64,000 nt of DNA, from assembly GCA_965223465.1 (NCBI GenBank), contig OZ245025.1, forward strand, positions 295,009-359,008. The letters run 5' to 3'. The DNA is from Candidatus Poriferihabitaceae bacterium. Its GTDB lineage: Bacteria; Pseudomonadota; Gammaproteobacteria; Arenicellales; Poriferihabitantaceae. A program made the translations under genes and the position numbers. The notes below the pieces were generated by a model that saw nothing but the letters and a program-made list of their open reading frames with translations, made no database searches and was not told the DNA's origin. This document shows, piece by piece, positions 12,275-45,303 of this stretch. Each line of letters starts with the position of its first letter. The first letter of the stretch is position 1.

Positions 12275-13369
12275 ATGCTTCCATTTCTACCCTACCGCTT
12301 TCGTTTCGATATGCCTTTGTTCGTCGGTTTAGTCGTATTGTGCGCGACTAGCATATTGATTTTGTATAGTGCTGGTGGCGCCAACAGCGATCAAATTTTC
12401 CGCCAACTGATACGCATTGGTTTATCACTTGTTCTGATGTTGGTTGTCGCGCAGGTCACTCCATCGACCTTAATGCGTTATTCTCCGGTGATTTACGGCA
12501 TTGGTCTTGCGATGCTGGTAACCGTATTGGCCGTTGGATTTATCGGCAAAGGTGCACAGCGTTGGCTTGATGTGGGCCTATTTCGTTTTCAGCCCTCTGA
12601 AATCATGAAACTAGCAGTGCCAATGATGGTCGCGTGGGTAGCTACCCGACGTTTCTTACCATTGTCATTTTGGCATATCAGCTTGTGTTTTGTGGTGATC
12701 ATTGTACCTGCAGCACTTATTGGCGTGCAGCCCGATTTGGGGACGGCACTATTAGTCACCTTTGCGGGGTTAGTGGTTATTTTCTTGGCTGGGATTGCTT
12801 GGAAATTTGTCGCTTATATCTTCGGTTTGTTGGCGATCAGTGCGCCGTTGGTCTGGCAATTTGTGTTTCATGATTACCAAAGAACGCGCGTCCTGACTTT
12901 GTTTGATCCGTGGAAGGATCCTCTCGGTGCCGGCTATCATACGATCCAGTCTATGATCGCCATTGGTTCTGGGGGCAAAATGGGCAAGGGCTGGTTGCAT
13001 GGGACGCAAGCACAATTAGAATTTATTCCCGAGCGTAGCACGGATTTTATATTCTCAGTATTTGGTGAAGAGTTTGGCTTGGTTGGCTTTTTGTTTCTAC
13101 TCAGTATTTATCTCTTTCTGGTGCTTAGGGGCACCATGATTGCCTTTTATGCGCAGGAGACTTATGACCGGTTGTTGGCCGGGAGCGTAATTCTTACCTT
13201 TATGTTTTACGTGTTTGTTAACATTGGTATGGTCTCTGGTATATTACCCGTGGTGGGTGTGCCTTTGCCCTTGGTCAGCTACGGAGGCACATCAATGATA
13301 ACCCTGATGGCTGGGTTTGGTATCTTAATGAGCGTCCAATGCGAGGGGCGCAAACTATCACGTAGCTAA
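12275..13369 (+). CDS. rodA: SEDS peptidoglycan polymerase RodA
   Basis: GAQRW, FQPSEIMK, QPDLGT, TDFIF and PL.SYGG motifs. Confidence 0.97.
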   Translation: MLPFLPYRFRFDMPLFVGLVVLCATSILILYSAGGANSDQIFRQLIRIGLSLVLMLVVAQVTPSTLMRYSPVIYGIGLAMLVTVLAVGFIGKGAQRWLDVGLFRFQPSEIMKLAVPMMVAWVATRRFLPLSFWHISLCFVVIIVPAALIGVQPDLGTALLVTFAGLVVIFLAGIAWKFVAYIFGLLAISAPLVWQFVFHDYQRTRVLTLFDPWKDPLGAGYHTIQSMIAIGSGGKMGKGWLHGTQAQLEFIPERSTDFIFSVFGEEFGLVGFLFLLSIYLFLVLRGTMIAFYAQETYDRLLAGSVILTFMFYVFVNIGMVSGILPVVGVPLPLVSYGGTSMITLMAGFGILMSVQCEGRKLSRS

Positions 13370-22377: not shown

Positions 22378-23418
22378 ATGTCGCTTGCGATTGTACAAAG
22401 TCGAGCAGAGCAAGGAATTGCGGCACAAGATGTCAGCGTTGAAGTACATCTTACCGGCGGCTTGCCCGCATTTTCGATTGTTGGCTTGCCAGAGGCCGCC
22501 GTACGTGAAAGTAAAGACCGTGTGCGCAGTGCCCTGATTAGTTCTAATTTCGAATTTCCGCGCAAGAAGATTACTGTCAACCTGGCGCCCGCAGATTTAC
22601 CGAAGGAAGGTGGACGCTATGATTTACCGATTGCGATTGGAATTCTGGCCGCCATTGGCGTAATTCCGCAATCGGTTCTGGAAGATAAAGTATTTATTGG
22701 TGAGCTGGCCTTAACCGGTGCGTTGCGCAAAACACGGGGTACCATGGTGATTGCCTTATCGTTGAGGAACAGTGATCTTAAGCTGTGTATACCGGCGGGT
22801 AGCGCGGCAGAAGCAGCAGCCGTGCCTGGGCTAGATATATTGCCCGCAGCGCATCTGATTGAGGTGGTATCTGCCTTGTTGGGGCAAGCACAATTTGCTT
22901 CGTACCCTGTGCCCGAGCCATATAAGAGCGAGTACGAAAAGGATATCACTGAAGTTAAAGGTCAACGCTTCGCCAAACAGGCCTTGACTATTGCTGCAGC
23001 AGGTGGGCATAACATTTTAATGTATGGCCCACCAGGGACAGGTAAATCCATGTTAGCGGAACGATTTGCAAGCTTGCTACCTGATCTATCGATAGAACAA
23101 GCGTTGCAAACTGCGGCCATTGCGTCGGTGAGTAACGATGGCGTAGATATGCAGCATTGGCTTAAAAGGCCTTATCGTGCCCCGCACCATAGTGCTTCTG
23201 CGGTCTCGATTGTAGGGGGCGGAACCAAAGCCACTCCGGGTGAAATATCGCTGGCGCATAACGGCGTTTTGTTTCTGGATGAGCTTCCCGAGTTTGAAAA
23301 AAAGGTGCTGGAAAACCTGCGCGAGCCGCTGGAGTCAGGCAAGGTTAGTATCGCACGCGCGGCATATCGATCCACCTATCCAGCCGAGTTTATTTTTATT
23401 GCGGCGATGAATCCTTGT
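22378..23418 (+). pseudogene. comM: ComM/YifB ATPase, N-terminal 347 codons, interrupted by the integrative element (frame reads on into the element to 23565)
   Basis: [24 protein letters not shown], Walker [15 protein letters not shown] and Walker B LFLDE; homology stops at AAMNPC. Confidence 0.95.
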
Positions 23419-23437
23419 TGTTGCGTTGCCATGTTGT
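23416..23437. other. attL: core TGT plus left inverted arm GTTGCGTTGCCATGTTGT (23420-23437)
   Basis: The arm is the exact reverse complement of 44807-44824; TGT is shared by both junctions. Confidence 0.92.
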
Positions 23438-23557
23438 CATCTTTTCAGCGAAGCTGGACATGGTGTTTACTCCTGTTTAATATGTTGATTAATGGTTTGG
23501 CTATACATTTTAAGTATATTAAAAGCTATAACTGTCGCTATAGTAATACATTAAAAT

Positions 23558-25012
23558 TTAGTTAGCGAATGGTAAATAATGAAGATGTAACTGTACTTCA
23601 TTGTCATGTACGACAATCTTCTCGGTTACTAGCTCAATAACCTTGTGTTTATCTTCTGGTGATAGCTTAACAAAGCGATCATGTAGCCACGTAGTTTCGG
23701 ATGCAATGTGATCGGAAGAAAGTGTTTTTTGCTGCATTGCTTTTATTATCCCTTCAAGTGTTGGGATTTCTGTTTTGATTTCAACCAGTCTTTTTTCTAA
23801 CGGTGTGTTTTTTCTTTCAAATCCAGTTTTACCAATTCCATCAGATATAAATAAATCATATAGCTTGTCTATTTCTTTCTTTATTTTGTTTTCTTCTTTT
23901 CGCAAGAGTTCGAGCTCAGATACTTTGTTTTGAAGGTTCGAGTTTGCCTCTAGCACATATTTTTCAATTTCCTTTTTCGACAACAAAAATTCTTTCAATT
24001 GTTGCTGATATACACCTTCCAAGTCATCTTTGTGAATTTTCTTTCGACATTTCTTGCAAGTATATGATGCTGAGTTAGAAGGCACATACATAGCACCACC
24101 ACACTCACAAAATGTGAGGCCAGAAAATATATGTGTCACTGGTTTACGAGCAACTTTCTTTCTAGACTTTTTCTGTTTTTCCAGGAAATCATTTACTTCA
24201 TCCCAAAGCTCTTCCGAAACAATGGGTTCAACTTCTGTGTATACCCAATCTTCCGGTGATTTTAAAACCCAGTTTTTTCCAGAACCACGGGATCGTGTAT
24301 AGTTTGCTCGATGCAGTCCTTTCATCGTTGGATTAGTTAAAAGCCTATCTACAGTTGAATCTGAGAAATTTGCTCCCTTACGAGTTCTGTATCCAGCTTC
24401 ATTCAGCATTCTTGCCGTAGTTTTCTTCCTTCTGTTATCAGAAAAAACTTCAAACATCTTTTTTATTATCACAGCCTCATTTTCGTCGACTTTAAGCTGA
24501 TTATTTTCCCATTTGTACCCTAATGGAGCGGCACCGCCCGTCTGCTTGCCTAGCTTGGCTCGTATTGGCACAGATGCTTTTACTCGATCTGATAACTCTT
24601 CACGTTCAAATTGAGCAAGAGCTGCAAGTACAGTGAAGAATAGGGTGCCTGCTGGTGTAGATGTATCAATTGATTCACCAAGTGAAATCAAATCTGCGTT
24701 ATGTTTTTTAAATATATCGGCGAGATCAAGAAGTTCTCTTGTGGACCTGGCGAGTCTTGCAAGCTTAGAGAAGATCAACCCTGTGATTTTTCCTGACGCA
24801 ACATCTGCTAGCATTTGCTTTGTTTGAGATAGCTCTATAACAGACTTGCCAGAGGTGGCGGTAAGGTCATATACCTCTACAATATCCCATTCTTTAAACG
24901 AGCAATATGCTTTAGCCCGTTCAAGGTGATGTTCTGGAGATTCTTTTTGAGAATCAAGGTCAGTAGAAGTGCGTATCCATACACCTACTTTTTTGTGTTG
25001 TTTTTCTCTCAT
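23558..25012 (-). CDS. Large serine recombinase (integrase)
   Basis: Catalytic [27 protein letters not shown]; recombinase domain GYKW/F.DSTV..LL.NP; zinc ribbon C.CG...Y.CKKC; coiled coil. Confidence 0.95.
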
Positions 25013-32067: not shown

Positions 32068-32205
32068 CGTACGCTTCCTGTTTCCTTGTTCTTCGCAGTG
32101 TTTAATTTTCTGCCATTTCTTAGGCCGCGATCATAGCATTTTTTTCTCAAGCTGAGTAAAATACCGCGCAATAATTAAGTATTTATATTGAGGATTGACA
32201 GGGAC

Positions 32206-35200
32206 ATGGTGAAACGACTTTCACCCCAGGCTAAGTCTGGGAAATTAAAGCTTAATGTACACCTGATATTTGGTCTTAGTTTATTGTTTTGCGTTCCTGA
32301 TTTTTCATACGCGCAGACGGATATAGATCAGGTGGGTGCCGATGCGGGCAGTTTTTCGGTTGATAATAGTGGCGCAGGTAGCTGGAGTGTTCCGATTGAA
32401 ACCCCGCCCGGTATTCGCGGATTAGCCCCCAAGCTCTCCGTCGGTATATCGACTTCAAAAGCAAACGGCCCTGTGGGGCAAGGTGGAACGCTATCAGGTG
32501 CATCTTCGATCAGCCGTTGCACCAAAACCATCGCCAGTGATGGCACCAATAGCAAGATTGATATCAGTACATCGGATGAATATTGCCTGGATGGCAATCG
32601 CCTGATTCTGATTGCAGGTACACACGGAGCGGCGGGTTCAGAATACCGTACCGAGATGGAGAGCTTTCAAAGGATTGTTGCCAATGGTAGTGCGGGTGGT
32701 GCAGGGCCAGCTTCGTTTACTGTAACTTCCCGCTCAGGGACGAAGATGACTTACGGGGGTTGGCCAGCCTCTCGTGTCTTGCATGGTTCAGGTGCTGTAC
32801 TTAGTTGGCGTATCAGCCAGCTGGAGGATACCAGTAGTAACTACATGGACTATGCGTACAGCAATGATCCAGCCGAGTCGGTGCTGTATGAGATTAATTA
32901 CGGCGGCAATACCAATGCCAACCAGGATCATTTTCTTAAGGTTAAGCTCGTCTATGAAGCCCGCCCGGATCAAAGTACGGGTTATAGCTTTGGTCAATTG
33001 GTTCAAAATACCAAAAGGCTTGCCAATGTACAGACTTTTACTGATGGTGCGCTGGTCAGAAACTATCACCTGAGTTATGCGTTAAACGAAGTCAGCGGCC
33101 AGTCTAGGTTGAGCCAGTTTCAAGAGTGCGCGGTGGGTGATGAAGGCGAAGTATGCCTGGCGCCTACTACATTCGATTACACACCAGAAAATGGCAACTG
33201 GATCACTTCTTCCAGTGCCAGTATACCCACGCCTACGCAAGGGCCTGATGGTCAACCCTACGGTTTAACGACCGATATTAACAATGATGGCTGGCAGGAC
33301 TGGCTGGTGTCTGTGCGCTATACAGATGGCAGTGTGAATAACCAAACCTGGTTGGGTAGCGAAACAGGGTTTTCAAGCGATATCAACTGGCAGCTCCCTG
33401 CAATTTTATATGACTATCAGCTGCATGCAGATGGCCTGGGTACCGCGCAGCTGGTCGATGTAAATGGTGATGGCTATCTGGATGTCATCGAAGCCTATCA
33501 AACCGCATCGGGAATCACCAAAAACGTCTGGCTAAACAGCGGAAGTAGTTTTAACCCTACGTCACAGTTTGTGCTACCGGATGTGTTTTTCTCTACGGTT
33601 AACTTAGCCCGTGGTGAAACCAGATTACGCTTTGCTGAGTTAAACGGCGATGGTTTGGCCGACGCGCTTGTTTATACTCGAGATCGAACCGACACCACCA
33701 CACGCAAGGCGTGGATTAATAATGGTACCGGCTGGATAGAAGATCCAGACTGGTTACCCAAACAAATATTATCTGACTACAAAGAGTCCTCTTATCCCGG
33801 CGAGTACGAGCATGCCACCTTGGCGGATATCAATGGTGATGGTCTGGCGGATTACGTACAAGCGGTTTTTCATGGTAGCACAGGAAACAACGATAAGCTT
33901 GTTTGGTTGAATACGGGTAATGGCTGGGAGCTTGATTCTGGTTACGCACCGCCCATAGAGCTATTAGATTATGCTGCCCATCAACGTGGTCACCCCAAAG
34001 GCCGTCTGGTTGATCTCAATGGGGATGGTCTTTTGGATATTGCCCAGGCAATCACCAGAGCGGATAACTCAACCGTCAGTAACGCCTGGCTCAATACCGG
34101 CGAAGGTTGGCTCAGCGCACCGTGGTGGGCACTACCTGCCTCAATGGCCCGCTATAAAGCGGATGGCCATACCGATATGCTGGGTGTGATGATGGACTTA
34201 AACGGGGATGGCAAACCTGAATTCGTCCAATCTTATCGAAGCGCCAGTGGGGCAACCATTTTTAACGCGTGGGAACACAATGGTGTTGGTTGGCTCAGCA
34301 GCAATGTGACCGCCTTGCCCGCGCCGTTGTTTAAACACCACAGCAATGGCAGCAGTACGTCATACGCGCAAATCGCAGATATCGACAGTGATGGCGTTGC
34401 GGATATATTCACCGCACAAAGCGGGTTGAGTAATACCGTCTATACCCACCCCGCCACAGTTGCTGGAGAAGTGGCGGGCTTTCTACGCCAGATAACAAAT
34501 GGCCTGGGGCTGGAAACCAAAATCCACTATGCAAATTCCAATGACGATGCGGTGTATATTCCGGCAACCTTGTCTCCCTGGCCCAATATCGCTAATAATG
34601 CTAACCGCATCCTGATCCAGAGTTCTAAAATCAGTAACGGACTGGGTGGTTGGAATGAGGCATTTCATCAGTATAGCGAGGCAAAGGTCAATGTTACCGG
34701 CAGAGGCAGCTTGGGCTTTGCCAGCCATAGCGCCGCTGATGGGCGTAGCGGTATAAAAGTAACGACCGAGTTTTATCAGAACTTTCCTTTCGCTGGGATG
34801 GTTAAAGCCTCGTCTAACGAAAAGCCTAATGCAGACCAAACTTATACGACGCTTTCTAGCTCCAGTTCCACTCCAGAACAACGTACTTTAAATGCAGGCA
34901 AAACAATATATGCCTATGCTAAATCCAGTGTCAGCCATGACTACGATTTACATACCGGGGCTTGGATTCAAACAAAACAGCTCACCACTACTCAGGACGA
35001 TTACGGCAATACCATCGAATCAACCGAAATTGTAAGCAATGCCAATAGTGAGGAGATCACAACCCAGCGCACTGTCACGCCTGATCTTGATCTGGTTAAC
35101 TGGATACTGGATAAAACCAGTTCCACCACCGAAACCATCAGCCAACCGGGCAAACCCAGCCATACGTCTACGGTTGTACATAGTGAATACTATCCGAATA

Positions 35201-38200
35201 CCAACCTGCTGAAAACGGAAGTGCTGGAACCCAACCTGGCGCATTCGCTGACATCGACGCACGAGTACGACGTATTTGGGAATCGTACCAAAACTACAAT
35301 TAGCCCAACCACCAGCCAAACTCCTGCACTTGCTCCACGAGAGACGATTACAAACTTTATTCATGCCACGGGACGCAAGGATGGGCGCTTTCCTTTATCG
35401 GCTACCAATACGCTGAACCATACTGCCTATAGTGAGTATGATGGCCGCTATGGTAAGCCGACACTGGTCACCGATGCCAATGGGGTTAAGAAGAAATACT
35501 ACTACAACGCTTTTGGTGTGCAGCTAAATGAAACCGTACTTCGAGAAAATGAGCCCGAACCTTCAGGGAAAGATGTCGCCATACCACATTGGTGTACGGC
35601 ACAAAATGAGTGCCCCGAAAACGCAGTCTATTTTATTGCGGCGCTGGATAATCAGCGTGAAGCCCCGGAAGCCGCCTATTATGATGCGTACGGGCGCGAA
35701 ATACGCCGCCAGACGCATGGTATGGGGGGCGCGGTTATTTATCAGGATACGGAGTACGATGCTTATGGACGCAAGGCAAAGGTATCCAATCACTATTTTA
35801 AAGATCAAACTTCCCCTATCTTATGGAAAGAGACACTATATGATGTGCTGGACCGACCTACCCAGATCACCATGCCAGACAATGGTATCACCACCTATGT
35901 CTATGATGGATTGACCACCACCGTAACCAATGCGCTAACTCAGGACACCATCGTTACTACAAACATCCTGGGCAAGCCTAAACAGAGTACCGATGATACA
36001 GGCAGCAGTACTGATTTTACTTATGATGTGCGTGGCAACCTGCTCACTACTACTGACTCGGCGGGCAATCAGATCATCAACGAGTACGACCACTTTGGCC
36101 GTAAAAAGACCATGGATGATCCAGATATGGGGTACTGGCAGTATTTTTATGATGCCTATGGGCAGATGACTTCGCAGCTTGACGCTAAAGGCCAAACGGT
36201 GGCGATGGAGTATGACGCACTGGGGCGCTTGAAAACCAGAACGGAACTTGAGGGCGTGACGTCCTGGACGTATGACAGCGCAGCGAATGGTAAAGGTAAG
36301 CTCGCCAGCGTGACCAGCCCGGGTTATTCACGTACCCTGGAATACGATACGCTGGGTCGCGTGGATAAATCAACCATTACCACAAGCGGCAAGAGTTATG
36401 CCACAGAGTTTGGCTATCAGGGCGTGTTGGAAAAAGTCGATTGGGTCAAATACCCGACTGGCCTGGTAGTACACAAGGATTATGACGATTATGGATTTCC
36501 AACAGAATTGGAAAGTGTTGATCTGGCGAAATATCAGGCCTATCGCAATAAGCTCGACGAGGCCAACGATTATTATCGCCAGGCAATGATGCTAGAGGAG
36601 CAATACAAAGATGAGTACGAGGCCTTAAAAGCCTTTATCGACCCACATTTTGATCTGATTAATGCAGCGTACAACAGGGCCGCACCTTATATAAATATGA
36701 TCGGTAAAACCAGCAATAAAGAGCTACAGCATAACGAACTTGCGATTGCCTACAATACCGAATATCAGCGTAACCTAGGACACTACAATAATCATATAGA
36801 TGACGCAGAAGAGGATTTGGCTACAGCGGGCACATATTTTACCGCATCTGAAGATTACGAGCGTCTCGCTACGCGAGATTATTATCCGACCTACATTGAT
36901 TATATGCATCGTGGTTGCGCCAATTTAGGGTCGGAGGCGAACTCTGGTGATTGTGCGGGAATCGGGCCAGGTGGGTACACTCCCTATTACGATCCGCCCA
37001 CAGCTTTGAGTTGGTTTAATGCGGCCGCGCCTTATGGAGAAGAGTACGAGCGATTAATGGGCATCGCTCAAACTAAATACAATGCTTATGTCAGTTACAC
37101 CAACCGGGCTAACGATCACTATGATGATGCCGCGGCATATGAAGAAGAGCTATCCATCTACGGTGCACAGGTAGGCAGCCACACCAATATCCAATTGGCT
37201 TTTCAGGCACGCAGAGAGGGGTATGAAAATGCTATGGCGGGTGATTTTGGCCGCTGGGCAAACAGGGACGACGCGGGTAATGATTGTATTGCGTGGGCCA
37301 AAGATGACCCTGACGATGACTCATGCGTGACTGAGTTAGGCATTTATCAGAATGAGTGGAACGAGATTGACGAAGAGGTAGAGCGTTATGAAGAAATTCT
37401 TGATCTGATAAAAGCGCAGGTTGATCTGGGTGATATTGCTAAGCAAGAAGCGGATGATTTGTATGACGAGTACAAGAACAGCGCTACTATCTACTGGACG
37501 GCTCTGAAGGCCGATGCCAACGGCCAGATCACAAAAGCCGAATACGGGAACGGGGTTGAAAGTAACTGGACGTATGATGAGATGGGCCGAATGGGCACGA
37601 TTCACACTACCACGCCGTATACCGATACCATTCAAACCAGCAGTACCATCCAAAATGAGTTATATGAATTTGATTCGCTGGGCAATCTCGACTACCGCCA
37701 TGATTTAGCCTATGACTTTAAAGAAGATTTTGAGTATGACACCTTAAATCGTTTGACCCAATCAGTGGTCTCGGGAACGGGGGCAAGCTTGTATGCTGCA
37801 GTCGGATTAACCACCATTGATTTTAGTTATGATGCACTAGGTAATATCACCAATAAATCGGATGTGACCGGCCAGAGCAGTGGCAATCACTATAGCTATG
37901 GACAAAATAACGCTGGCCCACACGCAGTCACCCACATCGGTGGTAGTAAAAACACCAGCTTCACCTATGACGCCAACGGTAATCAGCTAACGGGTAACGG
38001 CAGAACCATTACCTATACCTCGTTCAACAAGCCTGATCAAGTCAGCAAGGCAGGCAACGAGACAAATATGACTTATGGCCCAGGCCGAGAATTAATTCGT
38101 CAGGTGGAAACGACTGATGGTCAAACTACAACCACCACCTATATCGGTGGATTGTACGAAGAGCTGGAAAAAAGTGGTAGCACCAAGGCCAAGCATCATC

Positions 38201-39726
38201 TGACCATTGCTGGACAAACTGTCGCGGTCATCCAGCACGATGTGCTAGGCACACCGCAGGCACCAAGCTACGAATACGATGACACCCATTATCTGCACAA
38301 GGATCATCTGAACTCCATTACGGCAATTACAGATCAGGATGGCAAGCTGGTAGAGCGCTTTCATTATGATGCGTTTGGGCAGAGAAGAACCGCGATTGCG
38401 GCGCCATATGCAAACCTGGCGGCAGCAGGCACCTTCCCGATTACCAGCCGGGGCTATACCGGGCATAAGCAGATGTCCGGGACTGAACTGATTCACATGG
38501 GTGGTCGGGTGTATGACCCAGAAGTGGGTCGTTTTCTCTCTGCGGACCCGCACATTCAAAGCCCACTCAATACCCAAAGTCTGAATCGTTACAGCTATGT
38601 GAATAACAATCCACTTTCATTTACTGACCCGAGCGGTTATTTCCTGAGCAAGTTGTTTAAAGGTCTTAAAAAGCTGTTTAAGAAAATCGCCAAGATGATC
38701 AAGAAGGTGCTGAAGGCCATCGTCAAGGCCGTCAAGGTCGTGGCGAAAGTGGTCAAGAAAGTCGTTAAAGCGGTGAAGAAATATGCCAAGGTGATTGCTG
38801 CTGTGGCCGTGGCAGTGGTGGCTCCGTATGCCATTGCAGTACTGCAGGGAATGACTGTCGCAGCAGCAGCATCGTTGAGTTTAAGCGCGGTTGCAGTCGA
38901 AATAGGGGCAATGGGAGCACTAGCAGCTGGGGCACTAGGAGGTGGTCTAGCCGGTCTTATAACAACTGGTAGCCTTAAGGGAATGTTAATTGGTGCGGTT
39001 TCTGGCGCGGCCTTCGCTGGAATTGGCAACTACTTCGGTGGGCTAGGGAAGGCTTCAGCACTAACGAAAATAGCTGACAATGGGAAGTTAGTTCTAAGTG
39101 GTCTAGGGAAAGCCGCGAAGATAATTTCTCATGGCATCGCAGGCGGTGTTAGAACGGTATTGAGTGGAGGGAAATTCAAGACTGGATTCTTATCAGCTGG
39201 TTTTACACAAGCAGCTTCACCAATGATTGGCCGCATTGAAAGTGATATGGGACAGGTGGTTGCTGCAGGTGTGGTTGGTGGTGTTGGTTCAGAAATAGCG
39301 GGAGGAAAATTTGAAGACGGGTTTGTGACAGGGGTTTTTTCCAGGGTATTTAACGATATGCTGGAAGACGGGCATAGATCTCCTTCATGGCTAAAAATAA
39401 AGAAGTTCCGTGAATATTGGACGGGAAAAGCTAACGCAAATTATCCGTTGGGTTCTGCGGAACACAACGCCTACCGTCATTGCTCAGCTGCGTGTGATTT
39501 AACACAACAAACTGGAGATCCAGTTCTTTCGAATCGTATTGGGGCTCTAAGAGAATTACCCAATCCATTTAAAGTGAGCAGCCGGGTTGATTTACACAAT
39601 AATCATGTTGGTTCACTGCTTGGTTACAATAATCCTTCCAACTCTTGCGATGTAATGTGTGGTACAGCTGTTAATAATGGAGGTCAATACTCTCCCGAAT
39701 ATCCAGACTTGGAAATGAAACCATGA
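32206..39726 (+). CDS. Large RHS/YD-repeat toxin, TcB-TcC-like (SpvB-like N-domain, FG-GAP propeller, RHS shell, C-terminal toxin)
   Basis: Signal peptide ending SYA-Q; G.FSV..SGA..WSVPI..PPG..GL.P.L; seven D.NGDG..D-type repeats; YD repeats; HMGGRVYDP..GRFLSADP and NPLSFTDPSG RHS core. Confidence 0.92.
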   Translation: MVKRLSPQAKSGKLKLNVHLIFGLSLLFCVPDFSYAQTDIDQVGADAGSFSVDNSGAGSWSVPIETPPGIRGLAPKLSVGISTSKANGPVGQGGTLSGASSISRCTKTIASDGTNSKIDISTSDEYCLDGNRLILIAGTHGAAGSEYRTEMESFQRIVANGSAGGAGPASFTVTSRSGTKMTYGGWPASRVLHGSGAVLSWRISQLEDTSSNYMDYAYSNDPAESVLYEINYGGNTNANQDHFLKVKLVYEARPDQSTGYSFGQLVQNTKRLANVQTFTDGALVRNYHLSYALNEVSGQSRLSQFQECAVGDEGEVCLAPTTFDYTPENGNWITSSSASIPTPTQGPDGQPYGLTTDINNDGWQDWLVSVRYTDGSVNNQTWLGSETGFSSDINWQLPAILYDYQLHADGLGTAQLVDVNGDGYLDVIEAYQTASGITKNVWLNSGSSFNPTSQFVLPDVFFSTVNLARGETRLRFAELNGDGLADALVYTRDRTDTTTRKAWINNGTGWIEDPDWLPKQILSDYKESSYPGEYEHATLADINGDGLADYVQAVFHGSTGNNDKLVWLNTGNGWELDSGYAPPIELLDYAAHQRGHPKGRLVDLNGDGLLDIAQAITRADNSTVSNAWLNTGEGWLSAPWWALPASMARYKADGHTDMLGVMMDLNGDGKPEFVQSYRSASGATIFNAWEHNGVGWLSSNVTALPAPLFKHHSNGSSTSYAQIADIDSDGVADIFTAQSGLSNTVYTHPATVAGEVAGFLRQITNGLGLETKIHYANSNDDAVYIPATLSPWPNIANNANRILIQSSKISNGLGGWNEAFHQYSEAKVNVTGRGSLGFASHSAADGRSGIKVTTEFYQNFPFAGMVKASSNEKPNADQTYTTLSSSSSTPEQRTLNAGKTIYAYAKSSVSHDYDLHTGAWIQTKQLTTTQDDYGNTIESTEIVSNANSEEITTQRTVTPDLDLVNWILDKTSSTTETISQPGKPSHTSTVVHSEYYPNTNLLKTEVLEPNLAHSLTSTHEYDVFGNRTKTTISPTTSQTPALAPRETITNFIHATGRKDGRFPLSATNTLNHTAYSEYDGRYGKPTLVTDANGVKKKYYYNAFGVQLNETVLRENEPEPSGKDVAIPHWCTAQNECPENAVYFIAALDNQREAPEAAYYDAYGREIRRQTHGMGGAVIYQDTEYDAYGRKAKVSNHYFKDQTSPILWKETLYDVLDRPTQITMPDNGITTYVYDGLTTTVTNALTQDTIVTTNILGKPKQSTDDTGSSTDFTYDVRGNLLTTTDSAGNQIINEYDHFGRKKTMDDPDMGYWQYFYDAYGQMTSQLDAKGQTVAMEYDALGRLKTRTELEGVTSWTYDSAANGKGKLASVTSPGYSRTLEYDTLGRVDKSTITTSGKSYATEFGYQGVLEKVDWVKYPTGLVVHKDYDDYGFPTELESVDLAKYQAYRNKLDEANDYYRQAMMLEEQYKDEYEALKAFIDPHFDLINAAYNRAAPYINMIGKTSNKELQHNELAIAYNTEYQRNLGHYNNHIDDAEEDLATAGTYFTASEDYERLATRDYYPTYIDYMHRGCANLGSEANSGDCAGIGPGGYTPYYDPPTALSWFNAAAPYGEEYERLMGIAQTKYNAYVSYTNRANDHYDDAAAYEEELSIYGAQVGSHTNIQLAFQARREGYENAMAGDFGRWANRDDAGNDCIAWAKDDPDDDSCVTELGIYQNEWNEIDEEVERYEEILDLIKAQVDLGDIAKQEADDLYDEYKNSATIYWTALKADANGQITKAEYGNGVESNWTYDEMGRMGTIHTTTPYTDTIQTSSTIQNELYEFDSLGNLDYRHDLAYDFKEDFEYDTLNRLTQSVVSGTGASLYAAVGLTTIDFSYDALGNITNKSDVTGQSSGNHYSYGQNNAGPHAVTHIGGSKNTSFTYDANGNQLTGNGRTITYTSFNKPDQVSKAGNETNMTYGPGRELIRQVETTDGQTTTTTYIGGLYEELEKSGSTKAKHHLTIAGQTVAVIQHDVLGTPQAPSYEYDDTHYLHKDHLNSITAITDQDGKLVERFHYDAFGQRRTAIAAPYANLAAAGTFPITSRGYTGHKQMSGTELIHMGGRVYDPEVGRFLSADPHIQSPLNTQSLNRYSYVNNNPLSFTDPSGYFLSKLFKGLKKLFKKIAKMIKKVLKAIVKAVKVVAKVVKKVVKAVKKYAKVIAAVAVAVVAPYAIAVLQGMTVAAAASLSLSAVAVEIGAMGALAAGALGGGLAGLITTGSLKGMLIGAVSGAAFAGIGNYFGGLGKASALTKIADNGKLVLSGLGKAAKIISHGIAGGVRTVLSGGKFKTGFLSAGFTQAASPMIGRIESDMGQVVAAGVVGGVGSEIAGGKFEDGFVTGVFSRVFNDMLEDGHRSPSWLKIKKFREYWTGKANANYPLGSAEHNAYRHCSAACDLTQQTGDPVLSNRIGALRELPNPFKVSSRVDLHNNHVGSLLGYNNPSNSCDVMCGTAVNNGGQYSPEYPDLEMKP
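33271..34410 (+). repeat. Seven FG-GAP/VCBS-like repeats in the RHS protein
   Basis: DINNDGWQD, DVNGDGYLD, ELNGDGLAD, DINGDGLAD, DLNGDGLLD, DLNGDGKPE, DIDSDGVAD at ~60-aa spacing, most followed by a W.N.G.GW-type motif. Confidence 0.85.
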
Positions 39727-42063: not shown

Positions 42064-42249
42064 ATCTATACCCCCTTGCGTATCTTCAACGAAAGAGAAG
42101 GTCAGTAGTAGAAAACAACAAAAACACCGTCTAGCTGTGTTTTTTGTTAATTTGCATCCAAAATTGACCCACTAAGGCTAGGTATTTGCATCGAATTTTG
42201 ACCCACGTACAACCCCTCCTGCGAAGAACTAATGCAGGAGATAATCGGA

Positions 42250-43770
42250 GTGATAGACGTGGCGTTATTAAGTGTAATAAGACGATGGCATTTCCGCCAG
42301 GGGATGCCGATTCGAGAGATAGCAAGGCGAACCGGGCTGTCCCGTAATACAGTTCGCAAGTACCTCGCTAGTGGCGTGGTGGAGCCGAGCTACCCCAGCA
42401 GGAAGAGTCCATCCAAGCTTGATGATTATGAGCAGACACTGACCAATTGGCTGTTTAGGGAATCAAGAAGACACCGCAAGCAGCGACGCACGATGCGGCG
42501 ACTGCACAGTGATTTGGTTAAGCTTGGGTTTACAGGTTCGTATGATCGAGTGGCTGCCTTTGCTCGCGCCTGGAGGCAGGAACAGCAGGAGGCAAAGCGA
42601 GGTGCGGGCAAACACACCTATGTTCCCTTATCCTTTGCGCCAGGAGAAGCCTTCCAGTTCGACTGGAGCGAAGACTATGCGGTGATCAATGGCGTGAACA
42701 CCAAGTTGCAGATTGCGCACTTCAAGCTCAGCCACAGTCGGGCCTTCTACCTGCGGGCCTACCTGTTGCAGAGCCACGAGATGCTGTTTGATGCGCACTA
42801 CCATGCCTTCGGCATCTTCGGTGGTGTTCCAGAACGGGGGATATATGACAACATGAAGACAGCGGTGGATAAAGTAGGTCGCGGCAAGCAACGGACCATC
42901 AACCGGCGCTTTCAAGCGATGGCTAGCCACTATCTATTCGAAGCGGAGTTCTGCAACCCTGCAGCGGGCTGGGAGAAAGGTCAGGTGGAGAAAGGGGTAC
43001 GCGATGCGCGGTACCGGATATGGCAGGATGCCCCCCGATTCAAATCGCTCGCTGAACTGAACCGCTGGTTGCTTAAGCGCTGTATTGATCTGTGGCAAGA
43101 ATCGGCCCATCCCCAGGACAAACTAAAGACGATCTACGATTACTGGCAACAGGAGCAAGCAAATCTGATGGAGGTGCCCGCTGCCTTTGACGGCTTTGTT
43201 GAACACAGCAAACGTGTTACCTCGACCTGTCTGATCACCTTTGAACATAATCGATACAGTGTCCCGGCGAGCTTTGCCAACCGGGTGGTGAGCCTGCGCG
43301 TGTATGCCGAACGGTTGGTGATTGTGGCTGAAGCCCGCCAGGTGGCCGTTCATGAACGGGTCTTTACCCGCGATCATGGCAGCAGCGGCAGGACAATATA
43401 TGACTGGCGCCACTATCTGTCAGTGGTACAGCGTAAGCCTGGGGCGTTACGTAATGGTGCCCCCTTCAAGGAACTGCCGGAGAGTTTCCAACAACTGCAA
43501 ACCCGATTGTTAAAGCACCCTGGTGGTGATCGTGAGATGGTTGATGTACTGGCCCTGGTGCTGTTGCACGATGAGCAATTGGTTGAACGGGCAGTTAACG
43601 AAGCTCTGAAGGTTGAACACCCGTCCCGGGAGCATGTACTCAATTGCCTGAGCAGGCTCAGTGACCCCCCTCGTCCCAAGTCGCTTCGAACACCTGCAGC
43701 GCTGAAGCTGGTGAATGAGCCTGTGGCCAACACCCGGCGCTATGATCGTCTTCGTGGAGGCAAGCAATGA
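42250..43770 (+). CDS. istA: IS21 transposase IstA
   Basis: [22 protein letters not shown]; DDE motifs [20 protein letters not shown]. Confidence 0.95.
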
Positions 43771-44540
43771 AAGCGCAAGCCATGATTACTACGTTGAAGT
43801 CTCTCAAGCTGTTTGGTATGGCTGAGACCATTGCGACCATGTCCACTCAGTCTGCACCTGCTTATCAGCAGGCGATACCGATCCTGGAGGTCTTGCTTAA
43901 GGCTGAGGTGGCTGAACGGGAAGTCCGTTCCATCAACTACCAGATGAAGGTAGCCAGGTTCCCGGCCTATCGAGATCTGGCTGGCTTTGATTTTAGCGAG
44001 AGCGAGGCCGATGAAGCACTTATCCGGGCCTTGCATCGCTGTGAGTTTCTGGAAGACGCGCAGAATATCGTCTTCGTGGGCGGCCCGGGTACGGGCAAAA
44101 CACATCTGGCAACAGCCATTGGTGTACAGGCCATACAGCATCGCCATCTCAGGGTGCGTTGTCTGTCCGTAATTGAACTGGTCAACCAGCTTGAGCAGGA
44201 GAAACAATTGGGAAAACCAGGGCGCCTGGCGAATCGTTTATTGCATACCGATCTGGTGATCCTGGATGAATTGGGCTATCTGCCGTTCAGTCAAAGCGGT
44301 GGGGCATTATTATTCCATCTGATCAGCAGGCTCTATGAGAAGACTAGTATCATCATTACCACTAATCTGGATTTTGCAGAATGGTCTAGTGTGTTCAGTG
44401 ATCCGAAATTAACAACGGCATTGTTGGACAGATTAACCCATCACTGCCATATCATTGAAACGGGTAATGACAGTTACCGGTTCAGGCATTCAACAGCAAA
44501 AATGAAGGAGGTGAAAGCTAAAAAAAGAAACTCAACTTAG
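43767..44540 (+). CDS. istB: IS21 helper ATPase IstB
   Basis: [18 protein letters not shown] and LLDRLTHH motifs; ATGA overlap with istA. Confidence 0.96.
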
Positions 44541-44612
44541 GTCATAATCAGACCAAATAGACGGGTCAAAATTCAGTGCAAATCCCGGGTCAATTTTGGA
44601 TGCAAATTAACA

Positions 44613-44827
44613 TAGTAAGTATAGGGTGGTTTAGTACGATTCTTCTCCCAATTGACGATAGTCGAAGTGGTCACATTGAGCCTTTTTGCGACTTCTTTTT
44701 GCAGTAAATTGAGGTCAAGCCTTTTAGCTCGGATATGGTCTCCAAAAGTGATTATTTCCTTAGGGTAGTGTCGAGAAATTCGTAAAGCATTGATAACTAT
44801 AGGTTTACAACATGGCAACGCAACGGT
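44613..44827 (-). pseudogene. XRE-type HTH gene body, separated from its start by att and cut at the 3' end by IS21
   Basis: TFGDHIRAKRLDLNLLQKEVAKRLNVTTSTIVNWEKNRTKP HTH; the frame runs into the IS right IR; 5' part lies at 23417-23461. Confidence 0.8.
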
Positions 44828-44829
44828 GT
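44807..44829. other. attR: right inverted arm ACAACATGGCAACGCAAC, GG, core TGT
   Basis: Reverse complement of 23420-23437; comM codons AAT TGT GGT TAT TAT GGC GAT resume at 44830. Confidence 0.92.
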
Positions 44830-45303
44830 AATTGTGGTTATTATGGCGATAGTGCAAATCCTGCCAAGTGCCGCTGTACACCAGATCAAATCAACCGCTA
44901 TCGGGCTAAGTTATCTGGGCCATTGCTGGACCGGATTGATATGCATATTGAAGTCCCTCGCGTACCGCAGGAAGTGTTGTCCGCGCCCGGCCCAAAGGAT
45001 GAACGGACCAGCAGTCAAATACGCAATAAGGTAACAGCCGTACAGGCCAAGCAGACTAAACGACAGGGCTGTCTCAATAGTAAGCTGACGCCTAAGCAAA
45101 TTGACAAGATTTGCGCGCTGGATAAACCAGCGCAACAACTGATTGATACCGCCATGAATCGGTTGGGTTTATCCGCTCGTGGCTATCATCGTATTTTAAA
45201 ACTAGCGCGCTCGATCGCGGACCTAGCGTGCAGTGAGCATATTACGCAGGCGCAGCTAGGGCAGGCGATTCAATTGCGTAGTTTGGATAGAAGTCGGTCG
45301 TGA
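44812..45303 (+). pseudogene. comM: ComM C-terminal fragment (157 native codons from 44830; ATG supplied by attR)
   Basis: CNCGYYGD...CRCT, SGPLLDRID and LSARGYHRILKLARSIADL motifs. Confidence 0.93.

Follow-up and report, generated by a model that had tools for sequence, protein, structure and literature searches.

Which genes are cut, and which are put together, when the island that interrupts comM in a Candidatus Poriferihabitaceae bacterium enters or leaves the chromosome? We addressed this question in a stretch of 64,000 nucleotides (hereafter the window; positions 295,009 to 359,008 of contig OZ245025.1, assembly GCA_965223465.1), which belongs to a 3.38-Mb genome (G000) where comM, a competence gene, is present as a single copy and is split. 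The 5' part of comM (22378-23418, plus strand), in which Pfam recognises the Mg_chelatase / ChlI AAA+ domains, ends at the crossover core TGT (23416-23418), and the 3' part (44827-45303, plus strand), which corresponds to the Mg_chelatase C-terminal region, starts at the second copy of this core (44827-44829). Between them lies an island of about 21.4 kb (about 23419-44826), the ends of which are fixed by the empty-site contigs presented below. The core common to both ends is TGT, as read on the plus strand, and the arms next to it are perfect 18-bp inverted repeats of each other: the left (P) arm occupies 23420-23437 and the right (P') arm, which encodes the VALPCC residues of an HTH frame, occupies 44807-44824. 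The inverted repeat of the att site scores 19 of 21 positions with the script used to rebuild the sites.

The cargo of the island includes DUF3768, RadC and Exo_endo_phos proteins, a large Rhs/Tc-like protein of 2512 aa and an element of the IS21 family. The ORF for the 2512-aa protein (32188-39726, plus strand) combines SpvB, FG-GAP, TcdB_toxin_midN and RHS repeats, i.e., the architecture of a Tc/Rhs-type polymorphic toxin, and small ORFs of no assigned family lie on its 3' side. Phage structural or conjugation genes were not recognised in this island, nor was a set of such genes in the island of the relative G010.

The integrase gene of the window (23558-25012, minus strand) is intact and encodes a 484-aa protein with the Resolvase, Recombinase and Zn_ribbon_recom domains, i.e., the resolvase catalytic, recombinase and zinc ribbon set of a large serine recombinase (LSR). 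The matches to PF00239 (1.1e-28) and PF07508 (3.6e-21) both pass the Pfam cut-offs and that to PF13408 (0.0017) falls below it. The attachment sites are also of the LSR type: they are simple, they have inverted arms, the insertion is conservative and splits its target, and an exact empty attB occurs in contigs. The best match of the integrase in cultured phages is about 31% identical or less, no match was found in plasmids at E <= 1e-40, and scans of viral contigs with the integrase and the integrase-HTH fusions P0224 and P0161 as queries returned no relatives. Elsewhere in the same genome, at G000:C1:3308057-3309040 and 2658589-2659233, a related serine recombinase (37% identity) persists as two decayed copies with two to three internal stops.

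On the integrase side of the island, a preliminary description of this DNA had reported a short ORF headed by a strong ribosome-binding site, and this was confirmed on the minus strand. An AGGAG sequence (23470-23474) precedes, with an 8-nt spacer, the ATG at 23461-23459. The resulting leader ORF of the integrated state (23396-23461, 21 codons) comprises 15 codons that belong to the element (23461-23417), followed by codons read from comM antisense down to the stop at 23396. The leader ATG lies 96 nt beyond the integrase stop and on the same strand, which in a circle would place whatever the leader reads into downstream of, and co-oriented with, the integrase, as had been claimed for the HTH gene. 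A search for a sigma-70-like promoter on the minus strand, from the integrase stop to the leader, gave none.

It had also been claimed that joining the two ends of the element at the shared TGT continues the leader frame into this HTH gene. We rebuilt attP by coordinates in a script, the register being set by requiring that the corresponding attB restore the NPCxCG frame of comM. The rebuilt attP of the window is a single open frame of 104 codons, which extends from before the leader ATG across the crossover into the HTH, and the rebuilt attB keeps the comM frame (NPCNCG). A register shorter by 2 nt was rejected, as it frameshifts comM and contradicts the attB contigs. These contigs, found in the public runs X3 and X4 (one sample), contain the exact empty attB, in which comM up to 23418 is joined directly to 44830 onwards. 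Because real contigs make this join, the attP register is not a product of the model only, and both the continuity of the frame into the HTH and the restoration of comM upon removal of the island hold.

In the same runs, sequencing depth on the element-side contig is roughly half that of the comM flank (5.3 versus 10.3, and 2 versus 4.89), and the occupied form alone occurs in run X1, from the sample of X3 and X4, and in run X2, from a second sample. From the empty attB and the reduced depth on the element side, we conclude that the island is absent from part of the sampled population. The contigs in question represent the empty site, not the circle, and may reflect a strain difference as well as an excision. 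The attP joint at the left end appeared in no contig of the public runs X1-X4, contigs being prone to drop rare forms. Similarly, the attP pattern of the window subgroup gave 0 hits in viral contigs, in 71 collected loci and in the assemblies G000, G005, G010 and G061, and a contiguous leader is absent from six of six close HTH homologues.

At the right end of the island, a minus-strand ORF (44881-44573) carries an HTH_3 domain, and its element-encoded part begins with TVALPCCKP. The preliminary description had treated the HTH at 44613-44827 as a whole gene, which it is not. What is left (44613-44826, minus strand) is the 5' remnant of an XRE-type multi-HTH gene, with the first HTH only, amounting to about 27% of a 280-aa homologue. 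The HTH_3 match covers profile positions 1-37 of 55 (E 1e-8); the closest intact homologue, P0004 (280 aa), matches the window genome over its residues 3-75 only, at 84% identity; and the intact relatives have two to four HTH units. The HTH body goes no further than 44613 because 44612 is already part of an IS21-family element. This element (42145-44612, plus strand) possesses istA (42232-43770; rve/Mu-transposase type), istB (43767-44540; IstB_IS21) and 26-bp terminal inverted repeats; it occurs in multiple copies in the 3.38-Mb genome, eight identical (100%) and one at 92% identity, and it looks active.

The flanks of the IS21 copy at 42145-44612 show no target-site duplication, as if the IS had caused a deletion in which the 3' portion of the HTH gene was also lost. 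In the window genome, this gene lacks about two thirds of its length, and the window copy of the switch that we propose below is broken. As a consequence of the IS21 insertion and the adjacent deletion, the window copy is left with no full regulator in any state, and its attP would at best yield a stub of about 98 residues (15 from the leader, 73 from the HTH and 10 derived from the IS). The integrase and both att arms are intact in the window despite this truncation. As for the claim that the HTH body has no start led by a ribosome-binding site, it stands in that the sole in-frame candidate inside the right end is a TTG (44818-44816) with no purine-rich stretch ahead of it, but the gene to which it was applied is not whole, having been truncated by IS21.

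A single in-frame join is expected one time in three by chance, and the case stands on the relatives, not on the window join alone. Integrase relatives were found in related genomes, in genomes of other species and in metagenome contigs, and both ends were available for five comM-targeting elements. Besides the window, they are G010 (integrase 74% identical to that of the window, island of about 51 kb), G061 (65%, about 35 kb), G062 (46%) and G063A (47%). G063B (integrase L063, HTH L058), which has a target other than comM and undefined ends, was left out of this count; so was G005, with its left end alone on a contig, which served for the alignment of the leaders.

In all five elements, which represent three different arm sequences, the rebuilt attP reads through the crossover without a stop, and a central CA/AC occurs in each of the five rebuilt sites. 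The conservation of the frame across attP among relatives is thus borne out, with the proviso that five out of five does not amount to five independent trials, as the relatives are kin. Two arrangements were observed. The window, G010 and G061 have, ahead of the crossover, a leader of 15 codons that begins with an ATG of its own, and the attP open frames of G010 and G061 span 190 and 315 aa, respectively. In G062 and G063A, the integrase itself has no stop and continues in the HTH frame, giving open frames of 657 and 640 aa.

Several features of the leader, seen in an alignment of the left ends from the window and from G005, G010 and G061, suggest that it is coding. First, the ATG lies at a constant distance from the arm (24 nt, four of four), whereas the spacer between the integrase stop and the leader varies in both sequence and length (about 45 to 110 nt). 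Second, leader codons 2-8, which lie outside the 18-bp arm, have pN below pS in six of six pairs. Third, the alanine codon at position 5 differs among the four, being read as GCT, GCG, GCA and GCC. From this fixed length, codon 5 variation and pN/pS pattern, the leader looks like a translated sequence. Its ribosome-binding site is identical in G005 (AGGAG), is GAGG in G010 and is absent in G061, i.e., an RBS-like motif is found in three of the four. In L038 / P0156 (70% identity), the spacer is missing and the integrase ORF proceeds through the arm with no stop (...TTWQRNH) into comM antisense. As the integrase ORF reads straight through where the spacer is missing, we regard the leader as homologous to an integrase tail.

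The wider clade provides natural counterparts of the joined frame. All of the best 120 integrase homologues listed from a large protein library are at least 51% identical to the integrase, and 18 of these 120 are proteins of 636-653 aa that carry HTH Pfam domains in addition to those of the recombinase. We read the tails of 42 of them, the 18 fused and 24 non-fused. Within a subgroup, fused and short forms share a common tail up to one point (e.g., ...GQRNF or ...ATNxH). Beyond this crossover, every one of the 18 fused forms enters the HTH module (IPALPFCH... or SCVAKL...), and 20 of the 24 non-fused forms enter comM antisense, either as GFIAA.. (window 23414-23397 in another frame) or as GSWPPP, as in L038. 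As for the four others, those of the window and of G010 stop before the crossover, P0231 enters another gene and P0158 is ambiguous. More distant LSR-HTH fusions are also found (P0031, 994 aa; P0098, 1121 aa; P0032 and P0148, partial). From the fused and short tails, we infer that attP lies inside an integrase-HTH coding frame across the clade, and that the window represents a split-cistron variant of it. Some of the fused ORFs could derive from the junctions of tandem copies instead of circles. The suggestion that homologous integrases would read through attL and fuse to the HTH was well founded, as L038, G062, G063A and the 18 fused forms among the best 120 listed attest.

These comparisons bear on the possibility that the in-frame join results from chance and from the palindromic nature of the att arms, the short ORF being meaningless. 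This possibility accounts for a single join at odds of one in three, and the arms would be conserved as DNA regardless. We nevertheless hold it to be very improbable, because the frame is open in five of five elements across three arm classes, because natural fused ORFs exist, and because coding signatures are found outside the arms, in the leader and in the HTH, the latter being under purifying selection (pN/pS of about 0.5 for the window, G010 and G061).

The relatives also offered a number of observations on how these elements are arranged. The island of G010 carries OLD-like TOPRIM/AAA_15 proteins, helicase-like and metabolic genes and several transposases, the OLD-like and helicase-like genes resembling defence cargo, as well as a second serine recombinase of 549 aa (L067:10118-11767). 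In G005, the contigs L003 (G005:C26) and L025 (G005:C97) share about 100 nt. In L003, the left end of the element adjoins a decayed comM fragment, and at a distance of about 1 kb there is an intact comM with an open frame of 504 codons; in L025, the same decayed fragment is joined directly to a comM 3' copy (TAA stop), as in an empty site. From these two contigs and the intact comM nearby, we conclude that the G005 element sits in a comM-like decoy fragment, of which both occupied and empty forms were assembled. In G062, two comM 3' copies 6.5 kb apart (L033 and L035; G062:C57:6291-6770 and 12806-13285) are each preceded by the right end of an element, one with an intact HTH and the other with a decayed one, an arrangement that resembles tandem or accreted elements carrying comM fragments. 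A scan of viral contigs with the HTH alignment gave two loci. One of them, L036 (3787-4450), has a 70-codon comM fragment in the sense orientation, with a TGA created at the junction and a member of the HTH family directly after it; a different serine recombinase, of 593 aa, lies just upstream. In the metagenome loci L040 and L041, the integrase end abuts the 3' part of comM in the sense orientation. Going by L036, L040 and L041, each covered at one of its ends, there are relatives that enter comM at the same codon but the other way round.

Where does the HTH protein start? A HMMER search with the intact G010 protein retrieved 2827 representatives at E <= 0.001, of which 491 remained at E <= 1e-10; NCBIfam gave only generic XRE matches to the HTH, all of them sub-threshold. 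A typical member of the family consists of two HTH units in tandem (about 145 aa), with ALP(F/C)C at its N-terminus and an FLGY motif further on. Among 48 proteins with matches from query residues 1-5, the called N-termini are scattered from 3 residues inside the motif to 103 residues before it (within 2 residues for 22 of them, at 4-32 for 16 and at 45 or more for 10). This scatter is what is expected if the true start of the HTH does not reside in the local DNA. The public call for the G010 protein (P0003, 124 aa) even starts at an internal methionine, cutting into the first HTH. The conservation of ALP at the joint may be in part a constraint on DNA, as these residues translate the arm motif GCGTTGCC, which is needed for recognition by the integrase; this motif recurs in the right arms. 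Six HTH proteins from different sources (P0037, P0045, P0047, P0056, P0093 and P0133) have a similar N-terminal extension of about 45-60 residues (...GY/DCN.R(K/R).IPALPF), which looks as if a single conserved target, not comM, had been translated from the flank.

These N-termini are also relevant to another explanation, according to which the HTH is an ordinary regulator expressed when the element is integrated, from a TTG or GTG start at the edge or by read-through from comM antisense, the continuity across attP being the leftover of an ancestral integrase-HTH fusion that switches nothing. In-frame TTG or GTG codons do exist in the right arm; many members of the family are called with a methionine directly before VALPFC, and these may begin right where the element does; and P0004 begins with MGALPCC and P0275 with MSSYMGALPCC, so that a boundary ATG is possible. 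However, no Shine-Dalgarno sequence precedes the TTG and GTG codons of the arm, and the called N-termini are inconsistent with one another. Moreover, the window subgroup evolved a separate ATG across attP, at a fixed distance and with an RBS in three cases out of four, which is hard to explain if the junction is not translated. On these grounds, we judge the ordinary-regulator explanation to be unlikely.

By contrast with that explanation, we propose as the probable reading of these comparisons that the island is mobilised by an LSR the attP crossover of which lies inside an ORF, that integration cuts this frame, that the HTH is specific to the attP form, and that the switch is broken in the window genome. 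The integrase side of the frame is the C-terminal tail of the integrase itself, in most relatives, or a short leader with its own start, in the window subgroup, and the far side is a multi-HTH XRE-type module. The integrated element encodes an ordinary integrase of about 500 aa, and keeps at its far end an HTH body devoid of a start. The attP junction, in an excised circle or in tandem copies, would encode either the whole HTH protein or an integrase-HTH fusion of about 645 aa, and the same recombination event would restore or split the comM gene of the host. The HTH module, or the long integrase, would be made from the attP form only, and would serve the excised state alone, as a regulator or as a partner that binds DNA. 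Our best guess is that the HTH tunes the expression of the integrase or, as long as the element is free, makes integration the favoured reaction. As for the earlier interpretation of this locus, it is partly supported: its core stands and extends to the relatives, the window copy being degenerate.

A role of the HTH in directionality is appealing, given that many relatives have the module covalently joined to their integrase. In its strongest form, the HTH would be a built-in directionality device: the long integrase, or the integrase plus the HTH, made only from attP would integrate the element, and the short form from the integrated copy would behave differently on attL x attR, each reaction thereby altering which recombinase is produced afterwards. 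The HTH is indeed fused to the integrase in 18 of the best 120 homologues listed and absent from the integrated forms, and the Pfam scan recognised no separate directionality factor in the island, although such factors are too diverse to be excluded in this way. The split-cistron subgroup argues in the other direction, as it implies that a covalent linkage is not required, and we consider this device rather unlikely. We would place at a similarly low level the related proposal of a clade-wide isoform switch, in which the free element would make the long integrase-HTH and the integrated element the short form, so that a recombinase rewriting its own gene would set the direction with no separate directionality factor.

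How does the proposed attP-specific frame compare with known systems? In Tn4451, with its large serine recombinase TnpX, and in Tn916, the joint of the circular form creates a promoter, and a gene is expressed only after excision. There the joint assembles a promoter, whereas in the island it would assemble the coding frame itself.

The preliminary description had drawn an analogy with the integration-dependent immunity of mycobacteriophages. According to PMC3694055, BPs and its relatives have attP in the repressor ORF; their integrase is of the tyrosine type, and the repressor becomes active when integration strips it of a C-terminal degradation tag. The analogy holds in principle only. What is shared is that the attP site is embedded in the reading frame of a DNA-binding regulator adjacent to the integrase gene, and that the free and integrated genomes encode different forms. 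It fails in three respects. First, those phages are temperate and use a tyrosine integrase, whereas the island uses a serine recombinase and has no recognised phage genes. Second, integration deprives the phage repressor of a 3' degradation tag, whereas it severs the start and leader from the HTH of the island, i.e., its 5' end, or detaches the module. Third, the whole protein of the island would be encoded in the free form only.

The 'suicidal' integrases of the archaeal SSV type are tyrosine recombinases with their site in their own gene, and are said in PMC8371274 to be exclusive to archaea. The read-through relatives resemble them, in having the recombination site within the gene of the integrase, where it is cut by integration; the window does not, its integrase stop lying 96 nt before the leader. 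Furthermore, an SSV-type element splits the enzyme itself, whereas the serine recombinase islands keep the catalytic and DNA-binding core of about 500 aa whole and detach the C-terminal HTH only. A third point of comparison is given by the sr1WO prophages of the Wolbachia phage WO, in which a serine recombinase enters a magnesium chelatase gene and the HTH_XRE genes of the far end are sometimes annotated as pseudogenes (10.1101/2021.11.04.467296, as excerpted). The likeness, which is one of description, comprises an LSR at one end, a target of the comM type, an HTH_XRE at the opposite 3' end and a RadC/DUF2466 gene nearby. The WO elements differ in being phages with structural modules, and the excerpted text does not place attP inside the HTH gene. 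A full-text literature search, with subscription journals largely outside its reach, returned no account of an attP site placed within the frame of an LSR or HTH gene in bacteria.

If the proposed reading is true, these islands would show that bacteria, too, and with a serine recombinase, have recombination sites set within a gene in such a way that an element can sense whether it is free or integrated. The review PMC8371274 states that recombinases disrupting their own gene are known only from archaea. The reading offers a testable answer to the question of how islands with no recognised directionality factor distinguish their two states, and would explain why the HTH genes at the ends of elements are frequently mis-called or annotated as pseudogenes. 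It also matters to the mining of LSRs for genome engineering, as the integrated copies of this clade present in databases would encode the short form only, the natural form of the free element having an extra HTH module of about 150 aa. Finally, the event that would assemble or sever the HTH frame of the island is the same one that toggles the comM gene of its host.
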